Below are positions 28,633 to 64,000 of a DNA stretch of 64,000 nucleotides, one piece after another. Positions within the stretch are counted from its first letter, which is position 1. Each line of letters begins with the position of its first letter. The position numbers were made by a program, and so were the translations under genes. The notes beneath the pieces were generated by a model, which worked only from the letters and a program-made list of their open reading frames with translations, searched no databases and was not told where the DNA came from. Source of the stretch: an uncultured Bacilli bacterium (lineage in GTDB: Bacteria; Bacillota_I; Bacilli_A; RF39; UBA660); NCBI GenBank assembly GCA_934096275.1, contig CAKOLK010000001.1, positions 79,876-143,875 of the forward strand, given 5' to 3'.

Positions 28633-30402
28633 CTATTTATAATAATTTTTTGTCTTCATATTAGCTTCTAGTTCTTTTGATAAAACAAGATCACCAATTT
28701 TACTATGTGATAAGTCTAAATTATCTACGTTTTCTAAACCATCAAGAATTAGAGAATTTCCAATTTCTTTAGGTAATACTAAGTCTTTGGCACTAGTTAA
28801 ACCTTCCATAGATAAATCACCACTTATTTTTTCAGGTAAAACTAAACCTTTAGCATTTTCTAATCTATCTAAATATAAACTTCCATTTATTTCTTTTGGT
28901 AATACTAATCCTTCAGTAGTAGTTAATCCATCTAAATATAAGGTATAATTTATTTTTTCAGGAAACTTTAAACCTATAGCACTTGTTACATAAGCTAAGT
29001 CTAAGTATTCTCCGATTTCCTTTGGTAAAACTAAACCTTTAGTAGTCTTCAAACGACTTAAATCCAATACTTTACCCACTTTCTTTGGTAAAACTACATC
29101 CTCAGCACTTTCTAAGAAACTTAAAACCAAATTTCCTTCAACTTCTTTTGGAAAAACTATTCCTTTAGCATTAGTAATAAAACGCAAGTTCAAATCTCCT
29201 TCCATTTTTTCTTCAAAATCAAACATTGTCTTTAAATCATCAGCAAGATTTCTATTTTCACGTATTTCTATCATTCTTGGATCTTCTTTATAACCAAATA
29301 AAGTAATTTTTCCATCTACTTCATATATAAACTTTAAATCATCTTTAGTTAATTCTTTATTTAATTCATATTTAGTATAGATATAAGTAAGCATTTTAAC
29401 ATTATTTATTCTCTTTTTATATATTTCTTTATCCCCAAACTCATCTAATTTTTTATCTAATACACCTTCTAAATGAGGCTCTATATTTTGATTTTGTCCT
29501 ACCCCGATTATTTCATCAATTCTTGTTTTGTTATCCATTCTTATTGCTAAACGCGGCACTTTATAATCTTCATTATTATCTTTAGTATAATAAATATAAA
29601 AATCCCCATTTTTTAATTGAGACTTACACATTGCTTCACTTGCAAAAGACCAACATGTATTATATCCTTGAAGAGATTCATATAAACTCTTATAATCATC
29701 TTTCTGATCATACTTAATCCATACTCCCTCGATATCTTGCTCATTATATAGTTTTTCTTTCTTTTGTTTTAATAATGCAAGATAAAGTTTTGCAAAACTA
29801 CCAGACTTAATTATATCTTCTAAGGTATTGTCATCAATTACTTCATTGTGTACTTCCTTAAGTATAAGATCTATTGATTTAGTAAATGATTCAACATTAA
29901 GTTCTATGAATGGTTCAACTGTATCATCATCTCTTTTTTCATATTCTTCTTTATCACTATCATATGCTCCAATACTTAACATACCTTTAAATGCCCAATA
30001 CTTAGTCCACCATGGATAAAACTTTGCATCCTCACTTGTTAAATAATCTATCCAAACCGAAAGCGATTTTTTTTGATCATCAATAATTATTCGTTTATAT
30101 TCTTCTAATTTTTCTATATCTAAATGATGTCCAGTTTTATCAAAAGTTTTTCTATCTAAATAATCTATATAACTTTGTGGTATATCTTTTATTACATATT
30201 TATCAAAGTACGCTTGTTTTAATAAGTCAAGTTTATTATCCTCGACTGCTTTGTTATGTATTCTTTCTTCCCTATCTAAATATTTTTTAATTTTTTCTAA
30301 GTTTTCATCATTTTCAGAAGATGAATGAATTACACTTTTTTTCATATGCAAATCACTATCTAATTTTGATAAAAACTTTTCTCCTTCATAATTATAATCC
30401 AT
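28633..30402 (-). CDS. hypothetical protein with a possible PcfJ-like central region and 8 tandem 21-residue LRR-like repeats at the C-terminus
   Basis: Start at MDYNYEGEK (30402) after a GAGGTGG RBS. The C-terminal 187 aa consist of 21 aa units LxLxxLxxAxGLVLPKEIxGx (63 bp period, about 28690-29196). Confidence 0.6.
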   Translation of the reverse strand: MDYNYEGEKFLSKLDSDLHMKKSVIHSSSENDENLEKIKKYLDREERIHNKAVEDNKLDLLKQAYFDKYVIKDIPQSYIDYLDRKTFDKTGHHLDIEKLEEYKRIIIDDQKKSLSVWIDYLTSEDAKFYPWWTKYWAFKGMLSIGAYDSDKEEYEKRDDDTVEPFIELNVESFTKSIDLILKEVHNEVIDDNTLEDIIKSGSFAKLYLALLKQKKEKLYNEQDIEGVWIKYDQKDDYKSLYESLQGYNTCWSFASEAMCKSQLKNGDFYIYYTKDNNEDYKVPRLAIRMDNKTRIDEIIGVGQNQNIEPHLEGVLDKKLDEFGDKEIYKKRINNVKMLTYIYTKYELNKELTKDDLKFIYEVDGKITLFGYKEDPRMIEIRENRNLADDLKTMFDFEEKMEGDLNLRFITNAKGIVFPKEVEGNLVLSFLESAEDVVLPKKVGKVLDLSRLKTTKGLVLPKEIGEYLDLAYVTSAIGLKFPEKINYTLYLDGLTTTEGLVLPKEINGSLYLDRLENAKGLVLPEKISGDLSMEGLTSAKDLVLPKEIGNSLILDGLENVDNLDLSHSKIGDLVLSKELEANMKTKNYYK

Positions 30403-30514
30403 TTTTTCCACCTCTTCTTTATATCCTAAGTATATAGTAATTAATAGAATAAAGCAACAAAATACCAAAAAATAATAAAAATAAAAATAATATATAAAAA
30501 CTTATATATTATTA

Positions 30515-42677: not shown

Positions 42678-42740
42678 ATTGCTAATCTTATTTTCTACTG
42701 CTCGCCGCAAGATTTTACCTTGCAGGCTCGCTCAAATCAC

Positions 42741-44210
42741 TCAACTGATACTAAGCATATACGGTTTTTGAGAAGTCCCTTCTTCACCTGAAATCTTTAC
42801 GTTAGATGATAGATAAAGGACTGGGTACACGGCATACTCGCCGTCGCTGACGTTGCCGCGATTGTAATGGACATAGCCAGTCGAGGTCACATAGAAAGCG
42901 TAGAGGGAATTGCCAGACCACTGCGGAAGTAACCATGTATTTACACTTTTATCTAACCAATTATTTGTTGTTTTGCAACTTGCTGAACCATCATATTCAT
43001 ATAAGTTGCTTGTACATTCTTTTGATGCTGCATATCCATAATCACTTGCATACATTAGTGCTATCTTTTTAGATGCATCATTTTGCATTATAGGGTTTGT
43101 TCCATAATAGTAACCTGTTCTATTTGCTTCATTCTTTCTCTCATATTGCCATATTACATCTGATCTCATTTTTGAATCACTATATCCTCCAAGATAATAC
43201 TTTGTTGTACCTATCATATTTTGTGCATCAGTACTTAATGTATTATAATAATCATCATTTAAAAATGTATTTAATGTTCCTGTTACCCAATTATTATATG
43301 AACTAGTTGCAGTATCTTGTGTTTCATTCCATATTATATCTCCAATAGATTCATCTTTTATTATTTTAAATCTATTTTCTACGTTACCATCTGTATCTTC
43401 AGTTGGTATTACTCCAATTATTCTCCATACTTCATTATTAAATGTTACATAGTTCTTTACTACTGAATCTCCTCCACGATATCTATATTCTGTTGCAAAC
43501 TTACTGTCAACTTGTAATGTATCATCTATTGTATGAGTTATTTGTTCTAATCCATTTTGTCCTACATTTGCTTGTGCAAACTCTGTCGCAGTTAATCCTT
43601 TAACTGGTGCAGCTTCATTATTAATATTTACTCTAAACTTATAAGAATATTTCTTTTCATTAAGTTTAGTTGTATCTACACTCTCATCAATCCAAGCTCT
43701 AAGTCTATAACTTGTTACTATTTCACCTTTATTATTTGAAAATATTTCTTCTTTAGAACTTAAAACTTTATTATTTAACTTTTCTATTGTTGTAGGTTCT
43801 ACTACTACTGTCTCTACTCCATTTTCTACTTTAGTAAGATATACCTTTATTTCATTATCATTTAAAGGTGTTTCTACTGTTAATGGTTCTAAAACGATGT
43901 TGTAATTTAACTTTCTTTGTGTATCATCATTTGCTCTTGTTTTAATATAAGATAATACTTTAAAATCAAAGTAATTAGTTAATACCTTACCTTCACTATC
44001 TTTAATAGGCAATGCATTATTCATACCTATTTCATTAGACTCACTATAACTCATTTTTACTTGTCCTGATTGTATTGTGTTTGAGCCAGCTAATAAATCG
44101 TTTGCAGATGTCCATATTGCATATGTTCCTAAAGATACTAGTGCTATACTAAATAATGATAAAGATATCATCATTAGTATTTTCTTTTTATTATTTTTCA
44201 TGTTTAACAC
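42741..44210 (-). CDS. secreted modular surface protein: TasA/SipW-type signal peptide, beta-rich N-domain, DUF1566-like lectin-fold C-domain with a G+C-rich hypervariable-looking end
   Basis: Signal LGTYAIWTSAND. The N-domain is paralogous to 54711..55874 and the C-domain to 57289..58317. See findings. Confidence 0.7.
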   Translation of the reverse strand: MLNMKNNKKKILMMISLSLFSIALVSLGTYAIWTSANDLLAGSNTIQSGQVKMSYSESNEIGMNNALPIKDSEGKVLTNYFDFKVLSYIKTRANDDTQRKLNYNIVLEPLTVETPLNDNEIKVYLTKVENGVETVVVEPTTIEKLNNKVLSSKEEIFSNNKGEIVTSYRLRAWIDESVDTTKLNEKKYSYKFRVNINNEAAPVKGLTATEFAQANVGQNGLEQITHTIDDTLQVDSKFATEYRYRGGDSVVKNYVTFNNEVWRIIGVIPTEDTDGNVENRFKIIKDESIGDIIWNETQDTATSSYNNWVTGTLNTFLNDDYYNTLSTDAQNMIGTTKYYLGGYSDSKMRSDVIWQYERKNEANRTGYYYGTNPIMQNDASKKIALMYASDYGYAASKECTSNLYEYDGSASCKTTNNWLDKSVNTWLLPQWSGNSLYAFYVTSTGYVHYNRGNVSDGEYAVYPVLYLSSNVKISGEEGTSQKPYMLSIS

Positions 44211-52533: not shown

Positions 52534-53673
52534 TTAATTACCCATCAGTATATCTTTTAATACTTTTAAATAAAGTTTAAATATATTTAATTTATTTATA
52601 TCCTCTTTTGCTACTAAATCTATTTTACTTACTATTTTATTATTCTCTTTTATTTGAAACTCTCCAAGTACTGTATCTTTTTTTATTGGATAAGCAATAT
52701 CATAAGTTTTTACATCATATGTATATTCTTTTTCTTTATCCTGTTTTTTATTAATTATAACTGCATCATCTTTTAAAACTAAATCTATTTTATCTTTTGT
52801 TGCTTTTTCTAGAGTTAGCTGTCCTACTACATCATTCTTTTTCTTTATTATTTTAGTTTCATATTGATTAAAACCATAGTCTAATAGATCCATTGTTTCT
52901 TGATTTCTTATTTTAGAATTAGGGAAACCTAGAGTAACCGCAATTAATCTAAGTCCATTTCTTTTAGTAGTCACTGTCATACACGATCCTGCTTTATCTG
53001 TCATACCTGTCTTTAACCCATCTGTTCCTTCATAAAACCTAACTAGTTTGTTAGTATTAGTGATCCATGTTTTATTATCAGTATTTTCTCTAATATAACT
53101 CTCATAGTTCTTAGAGTAATCAAATACTTTTTCATGTTTTATTAATTCTTTTGCTATTATTGCCATATCATAAGCACTTGAATATGCCCCATCTTCATCT
53201 AATCCTGTACTATTTTTAAAATATGTATTTTGTAATCCCAACTCCTTTGCTTTCTTATTCATTTGACTTACAAAAGCTTCTTCAGTACCTGATACTCTTT
53301 CTGCCATTAAAACCATTGCGTCATTAGCGGAAGCCATTATTATACCTTTTAATAAATCATCTACTGATATCTTCTCGCCTGTATCAAGCCATATTTGAGA
53401 ACCACCCATATTCTTTGCATTTTCTGATGTAGTTAAAATCTCATCAGTTTTTAATGCATTCTTTTCCATTGCTTCAAATATTAAAATTAAACCCATCATT
53501 TTAGTAAGGGATGCTACTTCGTGAGGTTTATTTGCATTTTTATTATATAGTACTTGTCCAGTTGATGCTTCGATTATAACTGATGAAAAAGCATCTGGTG
53601 TTAAATCAACATCCTTAGAATTTGTCTCAAGAGCATAGATATTTATTGGTAATATACTAACTATTAGTAACAA
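52534..53673 (-). CDS. D-alanyl-D-alanine carboxypeptidase (PBP5/DacA type)
   Basis: SxxK (VASLTKMM), SxN (MASANDA) and KTG (LKTGMT). The true start may be an ATT a few codons upstream, after a GAGGTGG RBS. Confidence 0.85.
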   Translation of the reverse strand: MLLIVSILPINIYALETNSKDVDLTPDAFSSVIIEASTGQVLYNKNANKPHEVASLTKMMGLILIFEAMEKNALKTDEILTTSENAKNMGGSQIWLDTGEKISVDDLLKGIIMASANDAMVLMAERVSGTEEAFVSQMNKKAKELGLQNTYFKNSTGLDEDGAYSSAYDMAIIAKELIKHEKVFDYSKNYESYIRENTDNKTWITNTNKLVRFYEGTDGLKTGMTDKAGSCMTVTTKRNGLRLIAVTLGFPNSKIRNQETMDLLDYGFNQYETKIIKKKNDVVGQLTLEKATKDKIDLVLKDDAVIINKKQDKEKEYTYDVKTYDIAYPIKKDTVLGEFQIKENNKIVSKIDLVAKEDINKLNIFKLYLKVLKDILMGN

Positions 53674-53793
53674 AATTATTATTTTTTTAATAATACCACC
53701 TCAGTTAAAAATATGACAAATAGATTTTTTTAGACTTATTTTTACTTTATTTTAATATACTTTAGTGGTAATATATATTTAAAGGAGGCAAAT

Positions 53794-54672
53794 ATGAAAT
53801 TTATTAAAAACCTTTTAATTATAATTTTTATACTTGTTTGTCTTTTTTTAGCACTCAAATTAAATGGTATTAGTTTTTTTGATAAGAATAAGAATGATAC
53901 AATTGATGAGAATATAGAAATTGAAAATACTAAGTATAAAGATTATAAAAAATGCAAAGATTATGATTTGAAAAATATAGATAGGTACCTTCTATATAAG
54001 GAAAAGAATGAAAAGATTGATTATTGTGATGTTGTAACATATGTAAATATTGGACTTGATAATGAGTATTATACTAATACACAAAAGACTGATATGTCTT
54101 ATGATAATCTTATTCTAATGAATAAATACCTATATTTAGATGAAGATTATATACCTGATGATTTAGAAGAAATATCTAGTGATTATTTTATATATGGAAA
54201 TAGTAAAGTTAGAATGATGAGAAAAGAAGCAAAAGAAGCTTTTGAAAAATTATCTAGTGATTCTATTAAAAATGGTACCCCAGTATATGGACAATCTGGA
54301 TTTAGAGAATACTCTAGACAAAAAGAGCTTTATGATTATGCTGTTTCCACTAGTGGTGTTGAGGGTGCTGATAAAGATACTGCAAGACCTGGTTATTCAG
54401 AACATCAAACTGGACTTGTTATAGATGTTTCTTCGACTAGAAATGGAAATATGCTTACTTTTGATAAGACTGAATCTTTTAAATGGATGAATGATAATGC
54501 TCATAAGTATGGTTTTATCCTTAGATATCCTAGTGATAAGGTTGATATTACTGGTTATACTTATGAATCATGGCATTATAGATATATTGGTGTTAAAGCT
54601 GCGACTGATATGCATGATAATCATAGTGATTTGTCTTATGATGAATATTATTATAGATATATTAAAAATTAA
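53794..54672 (+). CDS. VanY/M15B-family D,D-carboxypeptidase
   Basis: SEHQTGLVIDV and ESWHYRYIG zinc-peptidase motifs. N-terminal TM. Confidence 0.85.
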   Translation: MKFIKNLLIIIFILVCLFLALKLNGISFFDKNKNDTIDENIEIENTKYKDYKKCKDYDLKNIDRYLLYKEKNEKIDYCDVVTYVNIGLDNEYYTNTQKTDMSYDNLILMNKYLYLDEDYIPDDLEEISSDYFIYGNSKVRMMRKEAKEAFEKLSSDSIKNGTPVYGQSGFREYSRQKELYDYAVSTSGVEGADKDTARPGYSEHQTGLVIDVSSTRNGNMLTFDKTESFKWMNDNAHKYGFILRYPSDKVDITGYTYESWHYRYIGVKAATDMHDNHSDLSYDEYYYRYIKN

Positions 54673-54710: not shown

Positions 54711-55874
54711 TTATTCAGTTTCAAAAGCATAATATGCATAATGATAAACTTGCCCTATTTCTTCAATACTCTTATCAGAATACATTCGCCCTCTTACCAT
54801 TAAGTGTAATGTATAAATACCACCCGCATTATCTATATCTTCTTGGGTTATTGTTGTATCTATTAATTCAAAATCTCCAGGTGTTTTTCCAAAATCCGGT
54901 TTATTCTGACTTATCCAATTTAATTCTCCTTGAGGATTACTAGTTGTTGTTATATCATAATCTATTGATAAAGCCATCGGAAGAGGTACCCCAGCTTTTT
55001 GTTCCTCATTCAAAGTATAAAAGTTATATATTATTCTGGTTGGTTTTGTAATCTTATAATGTCCTAAACATTGATCATATTCAGTCACAGAGCTATCATC
55101 ATTTGTACGAGTAAACTTACATGAACTATTATCACTCAATGTAGTTGATTGTATTTTTCTACCATAGACACTTATATCTTGTGTTGTTGAGTAACCTGTA
55201 CGAACAGTTACAACATGCTCTTCCATTGGTTCAACTGGTTCAGTTGAATTATTACTATTATTATTTATATTTACTCTAAACTTATAAGAATATTTCTTTT
55301 CATTAAACTTTGTTGGATCTACTTTGCTATCTATCCAAGATCTTAATCTATAACTTGTAATTACCTCACCTTTATTATTTGAGAATATTTCTTCTTGAGA
55401 TTTTAGAATTTTATTATTTAATTGATCAATTGTTGTTGGTTCAACTACTACTGTCTCAGTTCCATTTTCTACCTTAGTAAGATATAACTTTATTTCACTA
55501 TCACTTAAAGGATTATCTACAGTTATTGGTTCTAGTATTATGTTATAATTTAGTTTTCTTTGAGTACTGTCATTTGCTCTAGTCTTAATATAAGACAACA
55601 CTTGAAAATCAAAATAATTAGTAAGTAATTTACCCTCTTCATCTTTTATAGGTAATGCATTATCCATTCCTATTTCATTTGATTCAGTATAACTCATCTT
55701 TACTTGTCCTGTAGTTATACTATTATTACCAGTAAGTAGTTCACTACTCCATATTGCATATGTTCCTATCGATATTATTGCTACCATAAATAATGATAAA
55801 GATATCATAAGTAACACTTTCTTTCTATTAGGACTAGTTAGTTTTTGCCTCCCACAATTCGAATATTTGTTCAT
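54711..55874 (-). CDS. secreted surface protein, paralog of the N-domain of 42741..44210 with a different C-domain
   Basis: Start at MNKYSN (55874) after a GGAGGA RBS. Signal IGTYAIWSSE. About 190 aa are highly similar to 42741..44210. Confidence 0.65.
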   Translation of the reverse strand: MNKYSNCGRQKLTSPNRKKVLLMISLSLFMVAIISIGTYAIWSSELLTGNNSITTGQVKMSYTESNEIGMDNALPIKDEEGKLLTNYFDFQVLSYIKTRANDSTQRKLNYNIILEPITVDNPLSDSEIKLYLTKVENGTETVVVEPTTIDQLNNKILKSQEEIFSNNKGEVITSYRLRSWIDSKVDPTKFNEKKYSYKFRVNINNNSNNSTEPVEPMEEHVVTVRTGYSTTQDISVYGRKIQSTTLSDNSSCKFTRTNDDSSVTEYDQCLGHYKITKPTRIIYNFYTLNEEQKAGVPLPMALSIDYDITTTSNPQGELNWISQNKPDFGKTPGDFELIDTTITQEDIDNAGGIYTLHLMVRGRMYSDKSIEEIGQVYHYAYYAFETE

Positions 55875-55965
55875 ATTTTTTTCCTCCTTCTTTTTAGACA
55901 ATAAAAAAATACCTTGTCTACTTTTAATGTAAATTAATTATATAACATTTTCAGGTATTTTTCAA

Positions 55966-57285
55966 TGTGAAATTAAAAAAGATAGTGTAAAAATGTTTCG
56001 GAATTTCCACAAAAAAAGAAAAAACTCATGGTATAATACCAATATAATCCAAAAATAAAGGAGTTCTTTCTATGAATATTATATCACAAGATACAAAAAA
56101 TAAAATAATTAATTTAATAAAAAATGCATTTTTTGAAAGGATACGTAAAATACTAGATACTTTCTTAGAAAACATTTTTACTAATTTTTCAAAGAATAGA
56201 TATATTTCTAACCTTCTTTCCTTAAATAAAAACTTTTGTAAATTAATTACTGATTTATATTTAGATATAATTAACTTCACAAATCTATATTTTAGAAACT
56301 CTAAAGAAAGAAAAAATAATTACTATATTAGTAAAAAGAATGTTCAAAGAACAATTATTACTACATGGGGCAATTTAATTTTTGAAAGAGATTACTTTGT
56401 TTCTAAAGACAAAAAAGATGGGTTCTTTTTTATCGATAAATTATTTGGATTTAAAAAATATAATACATTTGATCCAATTGTAAGGAGTCTTGCTATTAAT
56501 GCTTCAATTAATAGTAATGTTAATAAAGTCTCTAAAAACTCTTTAGCTTATAGCTTTAACATTCTAGATTATTTAAACTGTAATTCTTTTTCTAACATTT
56601 CAAGACAAACTATTTATAATTGGATTCATAAATGGAATCTTCCTAATATAAATTATGATACTTTAGACAATAAAAACAAGCTTTATGTTATGACTGATGA
56701 AAAATGGATTCATGAACAGCAACACTAAAAAGACGGAAAAAAACATTATATAATGAGTAAATGTTTTGTTATCTTTACAGGTGCAAAAAGGAAAAATGGA
56801 AGAACAAAATTATTAAATAGACATATTTTTATTACTTCTTCAAAAGCTCCATATAAAGACTTAATGGATGAAATATGCAAAATATATGATTTTGAGAAAA
56901 TTAAAACCATTAATTTATTAAGCGATGCTGGGGGATGGATTTTATCTGGAAAAGATGAATTAAAACTTTATGCTGGTAATAAAATTGTTGTTAACACATG
57001 TGAGTTTCATGTAAAACAATAGAAAAATATATAAAACTTCAAGAAGTTAAACACAATGGAATTAATATATTAGATTTATATCTTAAAACTTATGGTAATA
57101 ATGAGAAAAAGGAAAATAATTACAATGAAAAAGAGATAAATTATTCAATATTTGATAATTCAATCTCTTTACTTCCAATTAAGTCTTCGAACAATCCAAT
57201 ATCACAACTTATTAATAATATTGCATTTGTATATAATTTTTAATAATTCCGAAACATTTTTACACTATCTTTTTAATTCATTATA
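55966..57285 (+). mobile_element. decayed insertion sequence (ISLre2/UPF0236-like transposase) with terminal inverted repeats
   Basis: Perfect 25 bp IRs GATAGTGTAAAAATGTTTCGGAATT at 55981..56005 and, as reverse complement, at 57245..57269. Imperfect extension outward for about 10-15 bp. Confidence 0.75.
56072..57243 (+). pseudogene. transposase gene broken by an in-frame TAA (56726..56728) and a frameshift near 57020
   Basis: ORFs 56072..56728 and 56753..57022 are in the same frame, separated by one stop. The remainder reads on in another frame to the TAA at 57241. MTDEKWIHEQ motif. Confidence 0.7.
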
Positions 57286-57288
57286 TTT

Positions 57289-58317
57289 TTAATTAACACT
57301 TAGTTGATATGGATCAGAACTTGTACCAGAGCCACTTGATATTTTTACATTGGATGATAAAGTTAAAACTGGACGTGTTGCATATTCACCAGCATAAACA
57401 TATTTTAAATTAAACACACGTCCTAAAGCAATAACAAATGTACCATTAGAACTATTTGGAATTTGAAATAAAAGCCACTCATAATTATTTTTAAATATCC
57501 AATTATCTTGTTTACATTGAGTATAGCTATAATAATCATATAATGTAGCAGTGCATTCCTTTGATGCTGCATATCCATAATCACTTGCATACAACAGTGC
57601 TATTTTTTTACGTGCATTATTTTGCATTACTGGGTTTGTATCATAATAATATCCTGTTCTATTAGACTCATTTTTTCTTTCATATTGCCATGCAATATCA
57701 GTAGTAATACTAGGACTATAATATCCTCCAAGATAATATTTTGTTGTTCCTACCATATTTCGTGCATCAGTACTTAATCTATTATTATAATAATTATTAT
57801 TAAAAAAAGTATTTAAAGTAGCAACAGTCCAATCATTAGTACCATTTTCGTTCCAGATCATATCACCAATAGATTCATCTCTCATTATTTTAAATCTATT
57901 TTCCACATTGCCAGAAGTGTCTTCAGTTGGTATTATTCCTATTATCCTCCATACCTCATTATTAAACGTTACATAGTTATTTACATTTCCTCCACGATAC
58001 CTATACTCTGTCTTAAATCTTTCATCTACTTGTAATGTATTATCTATTTCATGTGTTATCTCTTCAAGTCCATTCTTTCCTACATTATCTTTTGCAAACG
58101 CTAAAGCATCTTTTTCAGTTTTAACACTAAGTTTTAATATATTTTTTGATTCAACACTACTACTCCATTTTGCATAAGAACTATTCGTATAATTATAAGA
58201 AATAATACCGCTAAGTAATAACACAAAAATACCTATTAATGATAATAGATACTTATTATATTCTTTTATATCTTCAAATAAGGGGTTTATCTTTCTAGTA
58301 TTTTGCCCCCCCCCCAT
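57289..58317 (-). CDS. DUF1566-like lectin-fold surface protein, paralog of the C-domain of 42741..44210, with a G10 tract at the start codon
   Basis: TM/signal with SSYAKWSSS. About 85% nt identity to 42960..43600 by eye. No obvious RBS before the ATG. Confidence 0.6.
   Translation of the reverse strand: MGGGQNTRKINPLFEDIKEYNKYLLSLIGIFVLLLSGIISYNYTNSSYAKWSSSVESKNILKLSVKTEKDALAFAKDNVGKNGLEEITHEIDNTLQVDERFKTEYRYRGGNVNNYVTFNNEVWRIIGIIPTEDTSGNVENRFKIMRDESIGDMIWNENGTNDWTVATLNTFFNNNYYNNRLSTDARNMVGTTKYYLGGYYSPSITTDIAWQYERKNESNRTGYYYDTNPVMQNNARKKIALLYASDYGYAASKECTATLYDYYSYTQCKQDNWIFKNNYEWLLFQIPNSSNGTFVIALGRVFNLKYVYAGEYATRPVLTLSSNVKISSGSGTSSDPYQLSVN
58306..58315 (-). repeat. homopolymeric G10 (C10 on the plus strand) tract fused to the start codon
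   Basis: ATGGGGGGGGGGCAA on the coding strand. Confidence 0.95.
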
Positions 58318-62923: not shown

Positions 62924-62979
62924 ATAATATTTATTTTAATTTAAGAACCTGTCTCAACAGAGCAAGACTTCGAAAGACC

Positions 62980-64000
62980 CTAAGCACCAGAGTTGACAAG
63001 GACTGCGCGGGCGGAGTAGTTAGTGTGAGCGAGACCGCCGATGTTGTTGAAGTAGAAGACACCGGCGCGAGCACCATCATTGTAGCGCCCGCCGCGCAGA
63101 AACCAAGGGTTGCTAGAGTTCACGAAGTAGGCGTCATCTGAATACCAGTTACCACTTGTTCCTGTAGGTGCCATTTCTTTTGTTGCATCTCCTAGTTTCC
63201 CTCTTGTGTATTGCATGCTACTTGTTCCATAACTATATTTATCATAATATTTCTTACTTGGGAACGCATATGTTCCTGTAAATGATGTACCACCATCTAA
63301 GATTCCTGTAAATGATGAGTTATTATTATTTAAAGTTGAATATCCGCTCATTTGTTGCCCGTTACTATATACCATGTTACCCATCATATATTCCCATGAA
63401 CCACCACTCATATCATATACTCCATATACATTTCCTGTTGTTGATGCGCTTTGTCCTAATGTTGTTGTATATGAATTACATGTTGTACCACTACTTGTTG
63501 AGCCTTCACTTTGTGGTCCACATCCTGTTGTAAATGTACCTGCACTATTTATTTCAACTTCTTTATTTATCCCGTATTTACTATGTGATAGGTATGTTAC
63601 TGCTCCCCATTCCATGTTCTTCATCATATGAGTTTCATCAGTTGTACTAAATCCATATTTATTTCCAGATTCTCTCATCTTTTGGATTCCATTAAAGAAT
63701 GTTCCTACTTGTGCTCCTCTCCATGATATTACATTTGGTTTTATCTGAGGTCTTATTGTTTGTAAGTTACATCCTGATCCAACTATTACTTGATTTGATG
63801 CTGTACATGCAGTATCACTTGATACTTCAAACTTACCTACCCATATTCCTGTTAATTCTTCATTTTCTTCTCTTACATTGTTGTCATTTTTATCCCACCA
63901 GAATGCTGGATGTGTATATGTAGAAGTTCCTGCTTTTAATCCTCCATTTGTTGTATCTGTACATGTTTCTGATGTACTACTAGTACCAGTAACATTATCA
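62980..64000 (-). CDS. FGE-sulfatase/C-type-lectin-fold surface protein, 5' end beyond the right window edge, with a G+C-rich hypervariable-looking C-terminus
   Basis: My translation shows the minus-strand frame of ORF 62980..63678 stays open to position 64000 (..IWVGKFEVSS..ISWRGAQVGTFF..). Motifs EWGAVTYLS, GVYDMSGGSWEYM and LRGGRYNDGARAGVF. Confidence 0.75.
   Translation of the reverse strand, partial: DNVTGTSSTSETCTDTTNGGLKAGTSTYTHPAFWWDKNDNNVREENEELTGIWVGKFEVSSDTACTASNQVIVGSGCNLQTIRPQIKPNVISWRGAQVGTFFNGIQKMRESGNKYGFSTTDETHMMKNMEWGAVTYLSHSKYGINKEVEINSAGTFTTGCGPQSEGSTSSGTTCNSYTTTLGQSASTTGNVYGVYDMSGGSWEYMMGNMVYSNGQQMSGYSTLNNNNSSFTGILDGGTSFTGTYAFPSKKYYDKYSYGTSSMQYTRGKLGDATKEMAPTGTSGNWYSDDAYFVNSSNPWFLRGGRYNDGARAGVFYFNNIGGLAHTNYSARAVLVNSGA

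Follow-up and report, generated by a model that had tools for sequence, protein, structure and literature searches.

Positions 62983 to 63135 of the window (the whole 64 kb stretch of DNA that was analyzed) form the 3′ end of a protein-coding gene, and we consider it probable, with good confidence, that they were written by a diversity-generating retroelement (DGR), a known system of hypermutation, as the variable region (VR) of a remote target and that the cognate template repeat (TR) exists in the same genome. We also favor, less firmly, the view that the VR is under diversification at present. The gene lies on the minus strand, enters the window from beyond 64000 and ends with a TAG stop codon at 62980-62982. 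The 5′ limit of the VR was set at the onset of TR homology, which falls at a GAC codon 10 codons ahead of TGG. The features discussed below are as follows.

62980..64000, minus strand: the target gene, of which the 3′ 1,021 nt are present, cut by the window edge; by translation it encodes a C-type-lectin / FGE-like domain.
63385..63423, minus strand: GVYDMSGGSWEYM, the FGE-like core motif of the lectin-fold domain, in host-like A+T-rich codons and outside the VR.
62983..63135, minus strand: the VR, 51 codons, G+C-rich and adenine-poor, with NNC/NNT codons and with hypervariable positions interleaved with an invariant scaffold.
62998..63015, minus strand: TCCGCCCGCGCAGTCCTT (S-A-R-A-V-L), the 3′ block of the VR and the candidate 3′ TR-homology (IMH-proximal) segment.
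62945..62982, minus strand: the stop codon and a conserved non-coding tail, TAG GGTCTTTCGAAGTC TTGCTCTGTTGAGACAGG, from an alignment made by eye.

An adenine-poor island in a lectin-fold gene

The VR is 58% G+C and 16% A, against 35% G+C and 42% A for the gene around it, and on the coding strand the A content is 42% upstream of the VR and 16% within it. The window as a whole is 26.4% G+C, and its 100-nt windows reach 63% G+C at 63000-63099. Codon usage was counted in the same gene on either side of the break: of the terminal 52 codons, 31 are NNC, 16 NNT, 4 NNG and 1 NNA (GC3 0.67), compared with 20 NNC and 148 NNA among the 287 upstream codons (GC3 0.16). Fisher tests of the two sets gave p = 4e-13 for GC3 and p = 1.7e-13 for third-position A. 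Six AAC codons and one AAT are found in the VR, the run GCGCGGCGGGCGC is present, and its peptide reads DAYFVNSSNPWFLRGGRYNDGARAGVFYFNNIGGLAHTNYSARAVLVNSGA followed by the stop. The reading frame stays open and the scaffold residues are intact. Elsewhere in the window, comparably G+C-rich spots are limited to three tRNA genes and a patch at 42.8 kb. These results bear out the first-pass annotation of this DNA, which had described about 52 G+C-rich terminal codons, 31 of them NNC and several still AAC, preceded by a motif and returning abruptly to AT-rich codons upstream of about 63140; the composition break falls at about 63136, and the motif is GVYDMSGGSWEYM at 63385-63423. In alignments of homologues the YDMSGG core of this motif is invariant or nearly so, and four residues between GG and M are variable. 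A G+C-rich, A-poor patch can arise in a 26% G+C genome because a TR protects non-A positions only, so that constant sites cannot be A in the template.

The target protein has 5,849 homologues, all of them unannotated and found in gut metagenome assemblies and in MAGs labelled "Bacilli bacterium", the closest at 85% identity. An exact look-up of the neighboring 199-aa protein gave no record. Full-length homologues are ~525 aa long with an N-terminal hydrophobic membrane anchor, and the protein body is 80-85% identical among aligned homologues. A Pfam search of the target protein found no domain at normal thresholds. FGE-sulfatase (PF03781), which has the same fold, reached 15.5 bits against a gathering threshold of 23.3 (E 0.014, residues 177-240, in the YDM region), and 4 of 28 close homologues match it at all (best E 0.0032); read by eye, the motifs EWGAV..., GVYDMSGG.WE and RGG... 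resemble the FGE core. A profile search of PDB sequences returned nothing useful.

An AlphaFold (AF2) model built from 80 homologues has a pLDDT of 89.6 and a pTM of 0.90. With Foldseek, its top matches in the PDB were Thermus aquaticus TaqVP, Treponema denticola TvpA, formylglycine-generating enzymes (FGE) and Bordetella phage Mtd, and those in BFVD were phage FGE-like and tail-fibre proteins. The best structural match, TaqVP (5vf4; E 1.7e-8, probability 1.00), is a DGR variable protein whose C-type-lectin fold displays the VR, although its identity to the window protein is 15%, the TM-scores are 0.38-0.48, and the N-terminal architecture differs, the window family having a membrane anchor and a Cys-rich region. 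TvpA (2y3c) ranks fourth, as the next distinct PDB protein after three TaqVP chains, but has ~11% sequence identity to the window protein. The matches to the predicted structure support the FGE-type C-type-lectin fold put forward in the first-pass annotation, though by Pfam the protein is a non-member. Within this predicted fold, the VR takes up the C-terminus as the last 51 codons.

An abrupt switch in composition such as that at about 63136 could mark a chimeric assembly, or foreign DNA inserted without any relation to the gene. We find such an artifact scarcely credible, because the frame reads through without a break, dozens of independent assemblies have the same junction and scaffold, and the model folds as one confident domain running through the VR (pLDDT 85-97, residues 241-290).

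DGR cassettes and variable regions of relatives

A DNA pattern based on the scaffold located 58 loci in GTDB genomes, mostly uncultured Bacilli MAGs along with Acholeplasma sp. CAG:878. Several of the copies are A-rich and have no preceding coding sequence, which identifies them as TRs. The genes adjoining these TRs are an ORF with a MutS_I domain (MSL, 117-143 aa), bAvd (116 aa) and a reverse transcriptase (RT, 333 aa; RVT_1, YMDD, IGNYTSQ). Complete cassettes were found at L025, L034, L062, L065 and L069, and an RT of the DGR clade adjoins the TR in L025, L034, L053, L009, L004, L030, L040 and L062-L072. The order at L062 is the 3′ end of the target with its VR, an 8-bp hairpin, a spacer of ~330 nt, TR, MSL, bAvd and RT. 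Differences between paired repeats are concentrated at template adenines: the L062 VR differs from its own TR by 14 mismatches at adenines and 2 at the edge, the remote VR of L048 differs from the TR of L004, on another contig of the same MAG, by 15 mismatches at adenine sites and 0 others, and the L040 pair has 18 at adenine sites and 3 others.

Two observations concern the assemblies themselves. In L066 (positions 100-300) the VR is joined directly to the stretch usually found after the TR (…CTGGACTACACAATTAGAAG), and VR and TR have probably been merged in assembly. The RT contigs L067, L071 and L075 have the TR 3′ end as their exact starting point, showing that assemblies break at the TR repeat.

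By sequence comparison, the window VR belongs to a second class of VRs ("class B"), distinct from the TRs that were recovered ("class A"); the class-B group consists of the window VR, L001, L043, L073, L074, L077 and L078. Compared with the recovered class-A TRs, the window VR shows 16 adenine-site mismatches and 36-38 non-adenine ones, and we rejected these TRs as its template because of the latter, many of which are synonymous (TCT/TCC, GCT/GCC, CGT/CGC, GCC/GCA, GTG/GTC). The earlier expectation that a separate template would be needed is thereby borne out more strongly than it was put, since the VR is non-cognate even to the TRs of its own family. Mismatches lie mostly at adenines in the sister VR/TR pairs, and mostly at other bases when the class-A TRs are set against the window VR. 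Within class B, L043 is a mosaic with a class-A-like 5′ end and a class-B 3′ end, and L074 has non-NNY codons and a deletion of one codon.

Variation among the homologues was compared with the positions of template adenines. In the last ~50 residues, an invariant scaffold, PW.xRGG...G.F.F...G.A...S.R.V, alternates with positions that accept almost any residue. In an alignment of 80 homologues, the columns that face a class-A TR codon with A at position 1 or 2 average 3.28 bits of entropy, and the remaining columns 1.59 bits. K, E, Q, M and W, which mutation of AAY cannot yield, account for 6.6% of residues in the TR-A columns compared with 17.4% in the protein body. Of the columns homologous to class-A TR adenines, 34 of 35 vary, compared with 40 of 118 other columns (p = 3.4e-12). 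Among the five clean class-B VRs, 43 variable columns are first or second codon positions and a single one is a third position, and 12 more third-position columns vary through C/T differences alone. Variation among VR copies is thus confined, in 43 of 44 non-C/T columns, to codon positions 1 and 2, where an AAY codon has its adenines. Coding sequences that diverge in the ordinary way show the reverse, and the pattern points to an AAY-rich template. The predicted class-B template, with ~44 adenine columns, reads AAC GCC AAC TTY GTG AAC TCT AAY AAC CCT TGG ATY ATR CGY GGY GGG AAC AAY AAY AAY GAT GCT AAC GCY GGY GAY TTC AAC TTC AAC AAC AAC AAY GGT AAC GCT AAC AAT AAC AAC TCC GCC CGC GCA GTC CTT. 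In the comparison across relatives, the homologues are hypervariable exactly at the VR with the scaffold fixed. The first-pass reading of the segment as a DGR variable region gains support from this hypervariability, from the codon-position bias, from the enrichment at adenine columns and from the cassettes of the sister genes.

The same data bear on the idea that no retroelement was involved. In that view, ordinary recombination or horizontal transfer carried a G+C-rich module from paralogue to paralogue, and positive selection on the binding site diversified it. The family is highly paralogous, with at least nine fetched loci from one MAG matching the VR pattern, and mosaic VRs such as L043 exist. 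Positive selection, however, would not confine change to positions 1 and 2 of ~22 codons whose third positions are C or T, and it would not deplete K, E, Q, M and W. Sister VRs, moreover, are matched by actual TR copies that lie next to DGR RT genes and from which they differ at adenines alone. We regard this explanation as very improbable.

The class-B 3′ boundary and its predicted template

The 18-nt block TCCGCCCGCGCAGTCCTT is identical in six class-B VRs of different genomes, all six synonymous sites included, and the sole deviating class-B VR is L074, by 2 nt. None of the 18 columns of the block varies, whereas 18 do in the 30 columns that immediately precede the VR. We read this invariance amid diverged flanks as continuing or very recent homogenization by a class-B template in each lineage.

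Beyond the stop codon, the window tail appears, when aligned by eye, to be a modified form of the canonical post-VR element (CTGGACTGAC-GAA-GTCAGTC TTGCTCTGTCGGGACAG). The sequence TAGGGTCTTT(C/A)GAAGT also occurs in L074 and L078, and the window and these two loci have in common ...GGYGCT TAG GGTCTTT(C/A)GAAGT, conserved despite being non-coding. Class-A VRs end in ...GCTCTGGAC TGA and are followed directly by a hairpin of 8 bp, GACTGAC-GAA-GTCAGTC. Folding of the DNA gave a 4-bp stem after the window VR (z = 0.34), compared with 8-bp stems in L062, L049 and L002, and the canonical 8-bp hairpin cannot form in the window tail. It has been lost in other ways in L001, L043 and L077 and is missing from most class-B VRs; in L073 the canonical hairpin follows a class-B body. 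A hairpin is not known from every DGR target.

A conserved element of ~75 nt with nested inverted repeats, GTGACCAAACAACGTTGGTGTCAGTTCGGGCTC...CCCGAACTGACCCAGTTCGTAGAACTGGCACAGC, was observed at L062:250-345, L069:98-170, L077:2352-2428 and L078:3015-3060. In L062 it lies between the target gene and the TR, and it is absent from the window. It has no match in Rfam, and it may serve as a terminator or belong to the 5′ region of the DGR RNA. In L077 and L078 a class-B target is followed by this element and no cassette comes after it; at the cassette position of L078 we read, by eye, a transposase-like (HTH) coding sequence.

The first-pass annotation had named searches for a TR with adenine-restricted mismatches and for RT and avd genes as checks, and within the 64 kb window both came back empty. 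The best 60-nt match to the VR was 33/60 in sliding comparisons on both strands, plain and adenine-tolerant, and no AAY-dense, G+C-rich stretch was found in the window. Its G+C-rich spots were discarded as TR candidates, being tRNA genes apart from the 42.8 kb patch. A tblastn search of the window with the L025 cassette proteins was negative for RT, Avd and MSL, and a profile HMM of 120 RT homologues gave a best E of 0.13 against its six-frame ORFs. Downstream of the VR gene, at the position of the L062 cassette, the window has ordinary genes. With no cassette after it, the VR gene is a non-adjacent target, and any cassette would be ~63 kb or more distant toward low coordinates, or else past position 64000.

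Searches for a class-B TR covered the searchable collections in part. A strict class-B TR pattern had no match in metagenome_contigs or viral_contigs, and a looser 3′ pattern in metagenome_contigs returned two further class-B VRs (L077 and L078) and no TR. The contigs of the RT homologues P0124, P0130, P0126 and P0132 have no class-B TR, as they start downstream of the TR or bear other TRs, and no RT relatives were found in viral_contigs. The scan of GTDB genomes required TGGTT after the conserved Trp codon, where the inferred class-B TR has TGGAT, and so could not match a class-B template.

These findings could be explained if the VR were an orphan, written by a DGR in the recent past and now ordinary, slowly decaying coding sequence whose class-B template or cassette has since been lost. 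Such a fossil would account for a 64 kb window with neither TR nor RT and for a class-B TR not found in the collections scanned, and the signs of decay in L074 (its non-NNY codons and codon deletion) fit as well. The canonical hairpin is degenerate in the window, L001, L043, L074, L077 and L078, and L077 and L078 have no cassette where L062 has one; these two observations in particular keep the possibility alive. However, in a strongly A+T-biased genome the VR still has a GC3 of 0.67 compared with 0.16 upstream and 1 of 52 codons ending in A, all synonymous sites of the 18-nt block agree across six genomes that diverge at 18 of 30 columns in the adjoining coding DNA, and the non-coding tail TAGGGTCTTTCGAAGT is kept in three genomes. 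The class-B TR scans, in addition, were partial, with a genome pattern of TGGTT against an inferred TGGAT. We judge loss of the template unlikely and prefer a VR whose cognate template is still in the genome.

A wider reading of the class-B data is that this lineage keeps two or more template classes side by side (A and B) for one large paralogous family of membrane-anchored lectin-fold proteins, with class-B targets recognized through a different, hairpin-less 3′ element, TAGGGTCTTTCGAAGT. We put this forward as speculation that will probably not hold.

The 42.8 kb patch ("VR1"; 42700-42960 of the window, in the minus-strand CDS 42741-44210) has no nucleotide similarity to 62983-63135, in agreement with the first-pass annotation, which had called the two different. 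VR1 has a homologue at L022:5652-5909, 81.6% identical over 261 nt; the differences cluster in a block of ~95 nt, and the ~125 nt downstream are almost identical. Within that near-identical stretch, after the stop codon, lies a G+C-rich inverted repeat, GAGCGAGCCTGCAAGG-TAAAAT-CTTGCGGCGAGC. VR1 has the look of another DGR-type VR, unrelated to the first, for which a separate template would be required.

Several neighboring genes are related to these two. A paralogue of VR1 at 57289-58317 has an A+T-rich, non-VR version of the VR1 C-terminus, and its product fuses a VR2-family N-terminal anchor (MGGGQNTRKINPLF...) to a VR1-type C-terminal domain. The product of 54711-55901 has its N-terminal half in common with the VR1 protein, and the surface proteins encoded at 54711-55901, 57289-58317, 42741-44210 and 62980-64000 are modular. 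The segment 55976-57274, bounded by a perfect 30-nt inverted repeat (55976-56005 and 57245-57274) around a UPF0236 transposase-like ORF (56072-56728), is probably an IS element between two surface-protein paralogues. A VanY and Peptidase_S11 pair at 52534-54672 is syntenic with L080:2244-4429 at ~60% amino acid identity; in L080 a DGR RT lies ~1 kb from VanY, and the equivalent place in the window is occupied by target-family paralogues and the IS element. Elsewhere, seven tandem 63-nt repeats (60-72% identity) at 28702-29175 lie inside CDS 28633-30468, which probably encodes a repeat-domain protein.

Proposed mechanism and relation to known DGRs

We propose that a cassette of TR, MSL, bAvd and RT, of the kind found in the family, would be located elsewhere in the genome and transcribed. 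The RT-bAvd complex, with the MSL protein, would copy a TR RNA of ~150 nt into cDNA, misincorporating opposite template adenines. The cDNA would then replace the VR from its 3′ end, represented by the invariant TCCGCCCGCGCAGTCCTT block with the tail beyond. About 22 AAY codons would thereby become NNY and adenine-free scaffold codons would be copied faithfully, which would diversify the ligand-binding face of a C-type-lectin-fold protein anchored in the membrane. As its cognate template we propose a class-B TR, distinct from the class-A TRs of the relatives.

Such a system offers no new concept. DGRs with remote targets, with MSL accessory genes and with FGE-type targets have been described (PMC5758913), Avd accessories are documented too, and only the second template class and the hairpin-less 3′ element are out of the routine. 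The DGR of T. denticola serves TvpA and seven remote targets (PMC5758913). It resembles the system described here in being chromosomal and non-phage, in acting in trans on several scattered paralogues and in having a C-terminal VR in an FGE-type C-type-lectin fold (PMC5758913), whereas the window host belongs to the uncultured low-G+C gut Bacilli and the cassettes of its relatives bear MSL, in the order VR, TR, MSL, bAvd, RT. The BPP-1 DGR (Mtd, avd-TR-brt) is the prototype of adenine-specific mutagenic retrohoming, with a VR at the 3′ end of the target followed by the IMH and a hairpin, as class-A relatives have their 8-bp hairpin after the VR; its Mtd is also among the Foldseek matches. BPP-1, however, is phage-borne with a single adjacent target, its gene order and accessory set (MSL) differ, and the window VR is without a hairpin. 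MSL-containing DGRs, such as the Legionella DGR (Wu et al. 2018), are matched by the small MutS_I protein (117-143 aa) and Avd of the relatives, with no HRDC gene (PMC5758913). They differ in lineage and target family, and the window VR is tied to such cassettes through target-family homology alone.

If the two-class reading were true, it would represent a variant mode of target recognition and a multi-template, repertoire-like organization, and we know of no description of such an organization for DGRs. An adenine-poor, G+C-rich 3′ island in an A+T-rich genome is a reliable signature of DGR targeting that can be read from the DNA itself. The VR described here gives a little-known lineage of small-genome gut Bacilli a well-supported remote DGR target, and it brings to light, as a DGR substrate, a large family of anchored lectin-fold proteins that is unannotated, with 5,849 matches and without a Pfam domain.
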